DNA from: a virus
Virus genome (UHGV): UHGV-0131019
Direction: 5' to 3' (one strand)
DNA: 21,433 nucleotides
Made by a program: the position numbers and the translations under genes. The notes beneath the pieces are model-generated. The model searched no databases. It saw nothing but the letters and a program-made list of their open reading frames with translations, and had not been told where the DNA came from. Every line of letters starts with the position of its first letter. The stretch's first letter is position 1. Shown piece after piece: positions 4,846 to 6,280 of this stretch.

Positions 4846-5049
4846 ATGCTAAAACAGCAAGATATGACAGAAACCGCCGCCGCAGTCCTTCATTTCTTAC
4901 CTGCTGACAAGTGGGTAACGCCACGCATGATGACGAGAACTACCGGAGTAAGCGAAGCCAGGTGCCAGTTAATACTGACTCAGTTAGTTCTGGCGGGTCT
5001 GGCGAAGGATAACGGCGGGTACGGGAATAAATTCAGACGCTGCCAGTAA
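4846..5049 (+). CDS. Small hypothetical protein (67 aa), possible HTH
   Basis: ATG 4846 preceded by GAAGGGAAAAG. Sits upstream of the methyltransferase gene. The longer track ORF from 4738 begins with TTG and has no RBS. Confidence 0.45.
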   Translation: MLKQQDMTETAAAVLHFLPADKWVTPRMMTRTTGVSEARCQLILTQLVLAGLAKDNGGYGNKFRRCQ

Positions 5050-5199
5050 TGGCGGTTTCCTGCTGTGAAAATGGGCGGCTGGTGGGTGTTGGTAGCACCT
5101 GCCAGCCATTCGCTCATGCTTACTGGTCACAAGCGAACCACGGCCCACTGCTTTAGCGCAAAAGCAGAGTGAGCCTACCAGAGTTACGCTTACTGATCC

Positions 5200-6252
5200 A
5201 TGAAAAATACTGTAAAAATAAACAGTGTTGATTTAATCAACGCTGATTGCCTGCATTTTATTCAGTCCCTGCCTGATGATTCCATTGACCTGATTGTTAC
5301 CGATCCGCCTTACTTCAAGGTGAAACCTAACGGTTGGGACAATCAGTGGAAAGGGGACGAAGATTACCTTAAGTGGCTGGACCACTGTCTGGCCCAGTTC
5401 TGGCGGGTGTTAAAACCTGCCGGAAGCCTTTACCTGTTCTGTGGGCATCGCCTGGCATCTGATATTGAGATCATGATGCGTGAACGTTTCAACGTGCTTA
5501 ACCATATCATCTGGGCGAAGCCGTCCGGACGTTGGAATGGGTGTAATAAAGAAAGTCTGCGCGCATATTTTCCTGCCACAGAGCGCGTTCTGTTTGCTGA
5601 ACATTACCAGGGGCCATATCGCGGCAAAAGTGACGGCTATGCGGCAAAAGAAAGGGAACTCAAACAGCACATAATGGCACCGCTGATATCGTATTTCAGG
5701 GATGCTCGTGCCGAAATGGGTATAACGGCAAAACAAATTGCCGAAGCCACAGGTAAGAAAAATATGGTTTCCCACTGGTTTGGTGCCAGTCAGTGGCAGT
5801 TGCCGAATGAGGCTGACTATCGGAAGTTACAGGCACTGTTTTCCCGTATAGCGGCAGAGAAGTTTCAGGAACAACAACTGGAACAACCACACCACCAGCT
5901 GGTGGCATCTTATGATTCACTGAATCGCAAATATTCTGAATTGCTGGATGAGTTTAAATCTCTCCGGCGCTATTTCTCCGTATCAGTCTCCGTGCCTTAT
6001 ACCGATGTCTGGACGCATAAGCCCGTTCAGTTCTACCCGGGTAAACATCCGTGCGAGAAACCGGCGGATATGCTCCGGCAAATAATCAATGCCAGTAGTC
6101 GACCAGGTGATCTGGTTGCTGATTTTTTTATGGGATCCGGTTCCACAATAAAAGCAGCAATGGCGCTGGGGCGTCGGGCCTTAGGTGTTGAGCTTGAGTC
6201 AGAGCGGTTTAATCAGACAGTGAAAGAGATAAACGAGCTGGTGGGGAAATAA
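5200..6252 (+). CDS. Orphan DNA methyltransferase, beta-class (N6-adenine/N4-cytosine type)
   Basis: Catalytic motif IV DPPY near the N-terminus (IVTDPPYF) and AdoMet motif I FxGSGST near the C-terminus (DFFMGSGST): the circularly permuted order of beta-class amino-MTases. No adjacent restriction endonuclease gene. Confidence 0.85.
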
Positions 6253-6258
6253 TCTGGT

Positions 6259-6280
6259 GGCCACGTCAGGTGGCCTTTTT
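6259..6280 (+). terminator. Rho-independent terminator after the methyltransferase gene
   Basis: GGCCAC-gtcag-GTGGCC followed by TTTTTATTT, immediately after the MTase stop (6250-6252). Confidence 0.5.

Follow-up and report, generated by a model that had tools for sequence, protein, structure and literature searches.

A conserved leader RNA precedes an M.EcoGII-type adenine methyltransferase gene in the late region of a lambdoid prophage

In the viral genome UHGV-0131019, a gene for a 350-residue DNA methyltransferase (positions 5200-6252, + strand) lies 150 nucleotides (nt) downstream of a small open reading frame (ORF) of 67 codons, which raises the questions of what the enzyme does and how its expression is controlled. 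The window, by which we mean the whole stretch of 21,433 nt that was analysed, corresponds to a lambdoid prophage's late region. An earlier reading of this DNA, made from the letters alone and called here the sequence-only reading, had taken the gene for an orphan methylase, possibly governed by the small protein, and had overlooked a conserved RNA leader between the two ORFs (5064-5199), which covariation reveals. Our analysis indicates that the locus is probably a late-operon cargo module of the M.EcoGII type, in which a non-specific adenine methyltransferase is combined with a bistable RNA leader. Judged by its sequence, the enzyme itself is ordinary, a relative of the already characterised M.EcoGII and not a new orphan, and the type of gene is common. 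What is apparently new is the leader RNA, which is well supported and has a plausible role.

The methyltransferase matches Pfam family PF01555 (N6_N4_Mtase) with E = 1.1e-42 over residues 29-341 and the PADLOC model MTase_II with E = 1.3e-152, and its PHROG match is also a methyltransferase. The DPPY motif (residues 35-38; positions 5302-5313) precedes FMGSGST (residues 310-316; positions 6127-6147), so that motif IV comes before motif I and the protein belongs to the β-class of N6/N4 amino-methyltransferases, a class that the sequence-only reading had recognised; its statement that no partner endonuclease is present also held, as none of the neighbours identified with Pfam and PADLOC (Q, DUF6731, a membrane protein, holin, DUF1327 and lysozyme) is nuclease-like. 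The protein family has thousands of members across the Enterobacterales. When we aligned the protein by BLASTP with M.EcoGII (sequence from Supplementary Table S1 of PMC11551740), 281 of 349 positions were identical (81%; 91% positives, 2 gaps) over the full length, including the central region. M.EcoGII/M.EcoGI of E. coli O104:H4 C227-11 resembles the window protein in length (349 versus 350 residues), in the order of DPPY and FxGSGS and in its prophage setting (PMC5778455). M.EcoGII modifies adenines whatever their sequence context; in the lysogen it is silent, and its constitutive expression is harmful (PMC5778455); its homologues in O111 Shiga toxin-producing E. coli are also silent (PMC6602927). 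The window enzyme differs from it at 19% of residues, and what we say of this allele's function is drawn from the relative: it most likely methylates adenine with little or no sequence specificity. The anti-restriction role proposed earlier agrees with how M.EcoGII is regarded, namely as an enzyme that shields phage DNA (PMC5778455; PMC12707154). The discrete target motif expected with that role does not agree with 81% identity to a non-specific enzyme, and the idea that a failure to find a new methylated motif in expressing cells would count against the gene's activity was mis-specified.

The structural comparisons point to the part of the protein that distinguishes this family. Of the enzymes with solved structures, M.BceJIV, CcrM, M.RsrI and M.MboIIA align by phmmer only at residues 9-115 and 281-347 (E = 1e-24 to 1e-15), and the same enzymes are the best Foldseek matches of the AlphaFold model (E = 2e-9 to 1e-7). 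They share the catalytic core but are sequence-specific and lack the helical central region of ~165 residues; since the solved β-class enzymes align only on either side of it, this region is taken to be the family's recognition region. No solved structure of an M.EcoGII-type enzyme was among the phmmer or Foldseek structure matches. The model itself is of moderate confidence (predicted local distance difference test, pLDDT, 66); in it residues 146-254 are all-helical and include a helix at 177-184, a turn and a helix at 190-194. These fall in the segment of residues 175-210 (5722-5829; ending ...RKL) that had been described as an inserted helix-turn-helix (HTH)-like element. With this helix pair and a sub-threshold partial match to Pfam HTH_3 (E = 0.02, 15 bits), "HTH-like" is a fair label, but the segment is conserved in M.EcoGII and the whole family and lies at the target-recognition position, and is thus a family trait and not an insertion. 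Near the start of the gene, all six diverse sequences that were inspected are predicted to form, at minimum energy, a hairpin ACUGU-N8-ACAGU (5207-5230, + strand; codons 3-11), which may constrain the conserved N-terminal residues N3-T4-V5...S9.

Directly before the methyltransferase ATG lies the structured leader, 136 nt of the methyltransferase messenger RNA (mRNA) at 5064-5199 (+ strand). From its 5' end it comprises segment 1 (AUGGGC, 5071-5076); hairpin H1 (5077-5107); hairpin H2 (5109-5137), whose 5' strand is segment 2 (GCUCAU) and whose 3' strand is segment 3, with GGUCAC at 5125-5130; hairpin H3 (5142-5175), whose 5' strand GGCCCA is segment 5; and segment 4 (5181-5199), which ends in UGAUCC (5194-5199). 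Conservation runs from UGUGAAAAUGGGCG to the ATG, and the ~140 nt before the ATG are conserved even in loci that have no small ORF. In those loci the same pseudo-peptides occur ahead of the methyltransferase in differing reading frames; a coding function of the leader is therefore unlikely.

Because indels fall within the hairpins, RNAalifold gave a poor consensus on the raw MAFFT alignment, and explicit pair counts and a covariance model were used instead, with base-pairing partners slid along the alignment as the control. In the structure-blind MAFFT alignment, 85% of cells in the three-hairpin fold were paired versus 32-39% with partners slid, 18 of the 33 pairs had changed on both sides versus 5-7, and none of 500 shuffles reached the observed values. 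In the model-fitted alignment, changes on both sides affected 21 of the 33 pairs (4-10 when slid) and 99 cells (8-24 when slid). H1, for example, changes from GGCUGGUGGGUG/CACCUGCCAGCC to GACUGUAAAGGUG/CACCCUUACAGUC or GGCAGAAGAGUG/CACUGCUUCUGCC, in each case with compensation. The covariance model (R1) found 62 matches in 566 kb, one per locus and one in the window, each ending at the methyltransferase ATG. An independent sample of IMG/VR contigs, chosen by the DNA pattern of the leader, gave 120 matches, of which 3 ran off the contig; a methyltransferase lay downstream in 116 of the 117 evaluable cases, its start 128-134 nt from the pattern in 115 and at an aberrant offset in one. The single evaluable pattern without a methyltransferase (contig L265; minus strand, ~11207 on the reverse complement) retains the small upstream ORF, has a leader truncated after H2, and continues into unrelated genes in place of the methyltransferase.

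We found no counterpart of this element in existing resources. A search of 2500-7500 against Rfam 15 returned no match at E <= 1, and for 5030-5230 there was nothing on the + strand and two chance matches on the minus strand (E = 3.1 and E = 9.1). RefSeq annotates the locus only as "DNA-methyltransferase" and "hypothetical protein", and our full-text literature searches found no description of a leader or RNA motif for the M.EcoGII-type gene family; the paper that attributes the silence of M.EcoGII to a lack of transcription mentions neither an RNA leader nor an upstream small ORF (PMC5778455). The leader is thus a conserved and apparently undescribed cis-element, found only ahead of the M.EcoGII-type methyltransferase family.

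The window leader has its energy minimum (-56.9 kcal/mol, z = -3.0) in a fold other than the three hairpins: segment 2 (GCUCAU), otherwise the 5' strand of H2, is here paired to segment 1 (AUGGGC), and segment 4 (CGCUU-AC-UGAUCC-A) to segment 3 (GGUCAC-AAGCG). The methyltransferase start region has no canonical Shine-Dalgarno sequence, and UGAUCC, directly before the AUG, is the only Shine-Dalgarno-like sequence there. We take it to be complementary, in the right register, to GGAUCA of the 16S ribosomal RNA 3' end, a sequence that segment 3 (GGUCAC/GAUCAC) presumably copies as an anti-Shine-Dalgarno mimic. In helix 1:2, 97-98% of cells are paired, and no change on the variable side breaks a pair; in helix 3:4 the share is 85-86%, and four pairs covary. 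The clearest single example is alignment position 70, where covariation is three-way: a change from A to G repairs a C.A mismatch in H2 (CG:11), and the partner at position 130 changes from U to C in helix 3:4 (GC:7). Segment 3 also binds its own start region better (-11.6 kcal/mol) than those of diverged clades (-8.9 kcal/mol), the cognate pairing being the better one in 42 of 45 comparisons; for Providencia and Morganella the cognate values are -12.6 to -14.4 kcal/mol versus -6.4 to -8.6 kcal/mol. Most of 61 sequences bury the start region in their minimum-energy fold, and the average cost of opening it is 4.4 kcal/mol. Segment 1 has a further potential partner, GCCCA of H3, with which it would close a three-way junction around H1 and H2; the sole enterobacterial variant of segment 1, AUGAGC in a Mixta locus, comes with a matching GGCUCA (a compensatory change in helix 1:5). 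Two other pairings that are complementary in the window, one between the H1 loop (UGGUAG) and CUACCA after H3 and one between the loops of H1 and H2, showed no covariation by eye in the structure-blind alignment and were dropped.

Covariation establishes the helices of the leader, and their arrangement suggests that they control translation. In an OFF fold, helices 1:2 and 3:4 would be paired, and helix 3:4 would cover the first base (A) of the start codon along with the Shine-Dalgarno-like sequence; in an ON fold, segments 2 and 3 would form H2, GCCCA of H3 would take up segment 1, and nothing would cover the start region. Stray transcripts that escape termination would take the OFF form, so that little of the toxic enzyme would be made in lysogens, and during lytic growth the leader would be shifted to, or outnumbered into, the ON form. 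Candidate triggers are a protein, cleavage by RNase III of the ~20-bp stack of helix 1:2 and H1, co-transcriptional folding behind a Q-modified polymerase, or a small ligand.

The obvious protein to consider is the product of the small ORF (4846-5049, + strand), which follows an AAGGGA Shine-Dalgarno sequence placed 6 nt before its ATG and belongs to PHROG 331 (phrog_331, E = 4.6e-26). AlphaFold predicted a confident fold (pLDDT 86.7) with the topology H-b-H-H-b-b, that is, a minimal winged helix. Foldseek placed it closest to Z-alpha (template modelling score 0.85, E only 2e-3, ~15% identity), followed by IclR, TrmBL2, MarR and PefI. Hand alignment did not support placing it among the Z-DNA/Z-RNA-binding Z-alpha domains, as the contact residues Asn and Tyr of helix 3 and Trp of the wing are replaced by Q41, T45 and F63. 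Relatives were found down to ~50% identity, and NCBI labels some of them "TrmB family"; within the family, MLKQQDMTETA at the N-terminus and the recognition helix RCQLILTQ are invariant, and the residues between them vary. Searched with the family profile, 66 of 93 loci, in genera that range from Escherichia to Xenorhabdus, Photorhabdus, Providencia and Morganella, had the ORF 100-165 nt upstream of the methyltransferase; a variant of 52% identity occupies exactly the same position, and ~30% of loci lack the ORF. The winged-helix protein is therefore a frequent but dispensable companion of the methyltransferase. Two loci without it (L022 and L025, 3558-3797) encode, ~200 nt upstream of the methyltransferase, a 79-residue protein with three CxxC pairs, zinc-ribbon-like though without a significant Pfam match, which may be a different small nucleic-acid-binding companion. 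The winged-helix protein is most likely a nucleic-acid-binding regulator of the module and might, more speculatively, act on the leader as an activator in the manner of the phage Mu protein Com. The fuller proposal, that the leader founds a new family of bistable cis-RNAs for M.EcoGII-type genes that is flipped by a trans factor, most economically the 67-residue protein as an RNA-binding activator, we put forward tentatively and consider fairly unlikely.

Bulk transcription of the gene would, by synteny with other lambdoid phages, start at the late promoter pR' and occur only when the antiterminator Q acts at a tR'-like terminator. The Q gene (2726-3103, + strand; 125 residues, the short DLP12/21-like type; PF06530, Phage_antitermQ, E = 3.7e-52) defines the late operon, and downstream of it, as in lambdoid late operons, come an intrinsic terminator and then late genes on the same strand. 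This terminator follows a Q-type-specific stretch, GTTAAGAGTGGTTACTTCGCCACACAACTT (together 4670-4726, + strand; stem 4706-4718, T run to 4726). A second intrinsic terminator, GGCCACGTCAGGTGGCC with TTTTTATTT (6259-6285, + strand; stem 6259-6275), lies between the methyltransferase and holin genes. A terminator scan of 2600-7300 returned 13 sites versus 4.1 +/- 2.2 expected, and the hairpins at 4706-4726 and 6259-6285 are both annotated as terminators in phages Ayreon and SfV; the terminator-like elements reported earlier on both sides of the gene are thus present. In an alignment of the upstream regions, loci with the short Q are alike from ~35 nt before the first hairpin, and phages with a 250-residue Q are alike only from the hairpin onward. 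Since the similarity has its edges there, the hairpin appears to be the junction between a Q-specific part, in which pR' and the Q site would be expected, and a portable module, i.e., the tR' position. Because it borders the Q-specific region, the upstream terminator is tR'-like, and the methyltransferase gene is a cargo gene of the late operon. Of the modular insertion proposed earlier, the modularity survives, with two Q types upstream and varied genes downstream, and the upstream terminator is better explained as that of the late operon than as an insertion scar. The second terminator would, from its position, stop unmodified polymerase before the lysis genes. It is intergenic because the holin begins at ATG 6320; a 92-residue GTG ORF at 6257 was discarded as an artefact of ORF listing, as 71-residue holins are called in related loci.

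That the module is transcribed on its own, apart from Q, is unlikely in our estimation. A conserved block, CTTGCTG-N-CAGAGTTAT.GGTATGTCA (also written ending GTATGTCA; 4787-4823, + strand), is kept in nearly all of 36 aligned lineages, from Escherichia to such distant genera as Providencia and Xenorhabdus, and contains an invariant, -35-like TTGCTG, a 17-nt spacing and TA(T/C)NNG. It may serve as an operator or as a promoter that is weak or regulated. Were it a weak or activator-dependent promoter, it would drive the small ORF, the leader and the methyltransferase as one unit ending at 6259-6285; the terminators on both sides would insulate this unit from pR' and from the lysis genes, and the leader, placed between the two ORFs, would permit synthesis of the small protein and keep the methyltransferase untranslated. 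However, the hexamers are not called by a sigma-70 scan, the last position of the -10 element being without T, and two loci (L026 and L027) that lack both the block and the small ORF keep the leader and the methyltransferase directly after a tR'-like hairpin; read-through from upstream must therefore suffice there. At the end of the small ORF a further hairpin, CTGCCA-GTAA-TGGCGG (5040-5055, + strand), holds the stop codon in its loop, and loci without the small ORF have a full terminator at its place.

We regard as improbable the alternative closest to the sequence-only reading, in which a sequence-specific orphan methylase is transcribed under a C-like small HTH protein and was recently inserted between terminators. 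In its favour, the small ORF is real and well folded with an invariant recognition helix, a conserved block lies upstream of it, and phages that differ in their Q gene share the module. The controller (C) proteins of restriction-modification systems likewise are small DNA-binding-type proteins encoded just upstream of a methylase. They are, however, of the Xre HTH type, whereas the window protein is a winged helix without any HTH_3 or Xre match and with only weak Pfam matches to MarR_2, TrmB and DnaD_N; there is no endonuclease to control, and the methyltransferase and leader persist in the ~30% of loci without the small ORF. The likeness of the enzyme to a non-specific one speaks against the model as well. 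The suggestion of a small protein just upstream was accordingly right as to the ORF, and the controller-like role falls away.

The covariation could in principle reflect an RNA from the opposite strand, a cis-antisense RNA that overlaps and represses the methyltransferase start like P22 sar or the antisense RNAs of type I toxin-antitoxin systems. Non-canonical cells in H2 are nearly all A.C (136 versus 6 G.U); read on the minus strand, A.C becomes G.U, and there helix 1:2 and H1 are followed by UUUU. Yet helices 1:2 and 3:4 are G.U-rich on the + strand (G.U to A.C cells 60:6 and 60:24), an excess that supports a + strand RNA, and the A.C cells of H2 coincide exactly with positions that form Watson-Crick pairs in the alternative helices of the + strand. 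No promoter or terminator was called on the minus strand in the region, and the U tract is only 2-4 U long; we give an antisense RNA little credence. Least probable of all is that a leader peptide read from ATG 5071 (MGGWWVL...) in the 150-nt gap matters and the RNA fold does not, for although its AUG in AAUGGGCG is invariant in the Enterobacterales and its ORF has 33 codons in the window, the ORF ends at <=7 codons in 27 of 60 sequences, 1-nt indels shift both its frame and the place where it stops, it has no Shine-Dalgarno sequence, and the Aeromonas version has CGUGGC for AUGGGC with a compensating partner.

Several observations weigh against a late-operon module with a bistable leader, which we nevertheless prefer. 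In the leaders of Yersinia and PY54, H2 is perfect and the 3:4 duplex is weak (-4.7 kcal/mol); the OFF fold is therefore not universal, and the balance of folds varies by lineage. The Xenorhabdus and Photorhabdus loci (L065-L091) have only a shortened leader, ~100 nt before the methyltransferase, with an AAUGG motif and H1, no H2 or H3, and scores of 18-23 bits, and two methyltransferase loci, in Erwinia (L039) and Pantoea (L052), have no leader. Within the Enterobacterales, helices 1:2 and 1:5 rest mostly on invariant positions or one-sided changes, and the A.C excess of H2 is what a minus-strand RNA would also show. What ties the winged-helix protein to the leader is adjacency, and a separate promoter is conceivable, given the conserved -35-like block after tR'. 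As for pR', neither a scan nor inspection by eye found a convincing sigma-70 match in 4547-4700, and a motif common to the short-Q loci, TGnTAAGAG, is a candidate only; since pR' was not located, the dependence on Q rests on synteny. Finally, the 19% divergence from M.EcoGII could in principle alter the specificity of this allele.

A close parallel to the arrangement proposed here is com-mom of phage Mu, a toxic late gene for DNA modification whose start is hidden in mRNA structure and which has a small nucleic-acid-binding protein encoded just upstream; Mom itself is not a methyltransferase. By analogy, the window would combine the same three elements: a toxic modification gene, a predicted start-hiding mRNA structure and a small protein upstream. 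It differs in that its small protein is a winged helix and not the zinc ribbon of Com, and in that its leader is larger, with three hairpins and two folds, and unrelated in sequence. Neither the window nor any enterobacterial locus had the Com zinc ribbon (PF10122), which was present only in Aeromonas phage PhAER-5 (L011, 2230-2550; PQ495742.1). That phage has a diverged leader (34 bits) with CGUGGC in place of segment 1 and GCCACG at both partner sites, followed by an unannotated Com-like ORF (start 2362; PF10122, E = 1.4e-8) that overlaps the start of an M.EcoGII-like gene whose protein is 53% identical to that of the window; by its likeness to com-mom, this arrangement points to mom-like translational control. 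Mom and M.EcoGII have been paired as silent, toxic modification enzymes in a recent review (PMC12707154).

The position of the module also resembles that of stx-type cargo ("moron") genes, in the slot between Q/tR' and the lysis genes (PMC4104026, PMC7547250), although the cargo here is a methylase and not a toxin. The anti-small-RNAs AgvB and AsxR and the RNA StxS come from the same phage region (PMC4104026, PMC7547250) and were not detected by Rfam at the window locus; a scan of the window for transfer RNAs (tRNAs) and transfer-messenger RNAs returned zero, and the gap was not seen to be a tRNA remnant of the kind that adjoins stx. A 2.2-kb region of the window is 98-99% identical to phages mEp460, cdtI, Ayreon, PhiR40_1 and SfV (orf47/orf48), and the order Q, terminator, small ORF, methyltransferase, terminator, holin is common to the window, mEp460, SfV, Ayreon and cdtI. 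The module occurs in 1449 of 5426 complete E. coli genomes, in up to 8 copies per genome, and a search of viral contigs with the methyltransferase yielded almost exclusively near-identical copies and no added diversity. It is found behind two different Q types and ahead of either lysis genes or tRNA-stx2, and one Stx2a phage has it immediately ahead of the tRNAs and stx2AB. The whole module is retained by Stx2c phages and by some of the Stx2a phages, and 933W-like Stx2a phages have only a 35-residue C-terminal remnant of the methyltransferase between Q/tR' and tRNA-stx2 (e.g., phage phi191, L173 4001-4105), which suggests that the stx cargo displaced the methylase in them.

The remaining genes of the region follow the lambdoid plan, the order on the + strand being RusA, KilA-N, DUF968/HNH, Q, the small ORF and methyltransferase module, an S21-type holin, DUF1327, lysozyme and Rz. 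The lysis cassette begins with the holin (6320-6535, + strand; 71 residues, MKSM dual start; PF04971, E = 3.6e-35), and a 206-residue DUF1327 (YdfR-like) gene (6540-7160, + strand), whose mEp460 counterpart has ~104 residues, is wedged between holin and lysozyme. Between Q and the Q-specific late-promoter region, the reverse strand (3147-4546) encodes a 150-residue multi-pass membrane protein (phrog_8552) and a 310-residue DUF6731 protein (phrog_7651), neither of which gave a PADLOC match. This slot is variable: sister prophages with the same Q carry a 483-residue AAA_15/AAA_21 ATPase or another pair, of 182 and 308 residues, there (L004, 3136-4587; L006, 3274-4735), and in a Stx2a phage it is empty. 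The slot resembles a hotspot for defence or cargo genes. Further downstream, Rz is separated from the packaging genes by a pair (8406-10165, + strand) of 156 residues and then 430 residues, the second with DUF6575 and DUF7226. The pair weakly matches the PADLOC models PD-T4-10_A (E = 1e-5) and PD-T4-10_B (E = 3e-4) and is a possible prophage-borne anti-phage system.

M.EcoGII is widely used as a reagent for chromatin and RNA footprinting; to our knowledge, its biology in phage has barely been studied. For annotation, the common E. coli prophage "site-specific DNA-methyltransferase" should be expected to be non-specific, and the 150-nt gap ahead of it should be read as a functional RNA and not as spare sequence. 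A compact off-switch of this kind might be of use in cloning toxic genes. In the phage, by what is reported of M.EcoGII, the methyltransferase would mark progeny DNA ahead of its packaging and weaken the effect of many restriction systems that the phage meets in its next host. A leader that hides the start of its gene would, if borne out, provide a concrete mechanism for the silence of a toxic methylase in lysogens and a second case, beside Mu com-mom, of a dangerous DNA-modification enzyme that is gated at translation. If the 67-residue protein activates the leader, it would be a functional analogue of Mu Com on a different fold, through which the toxic methyltransferase would stay silent in lysogens and be made late.

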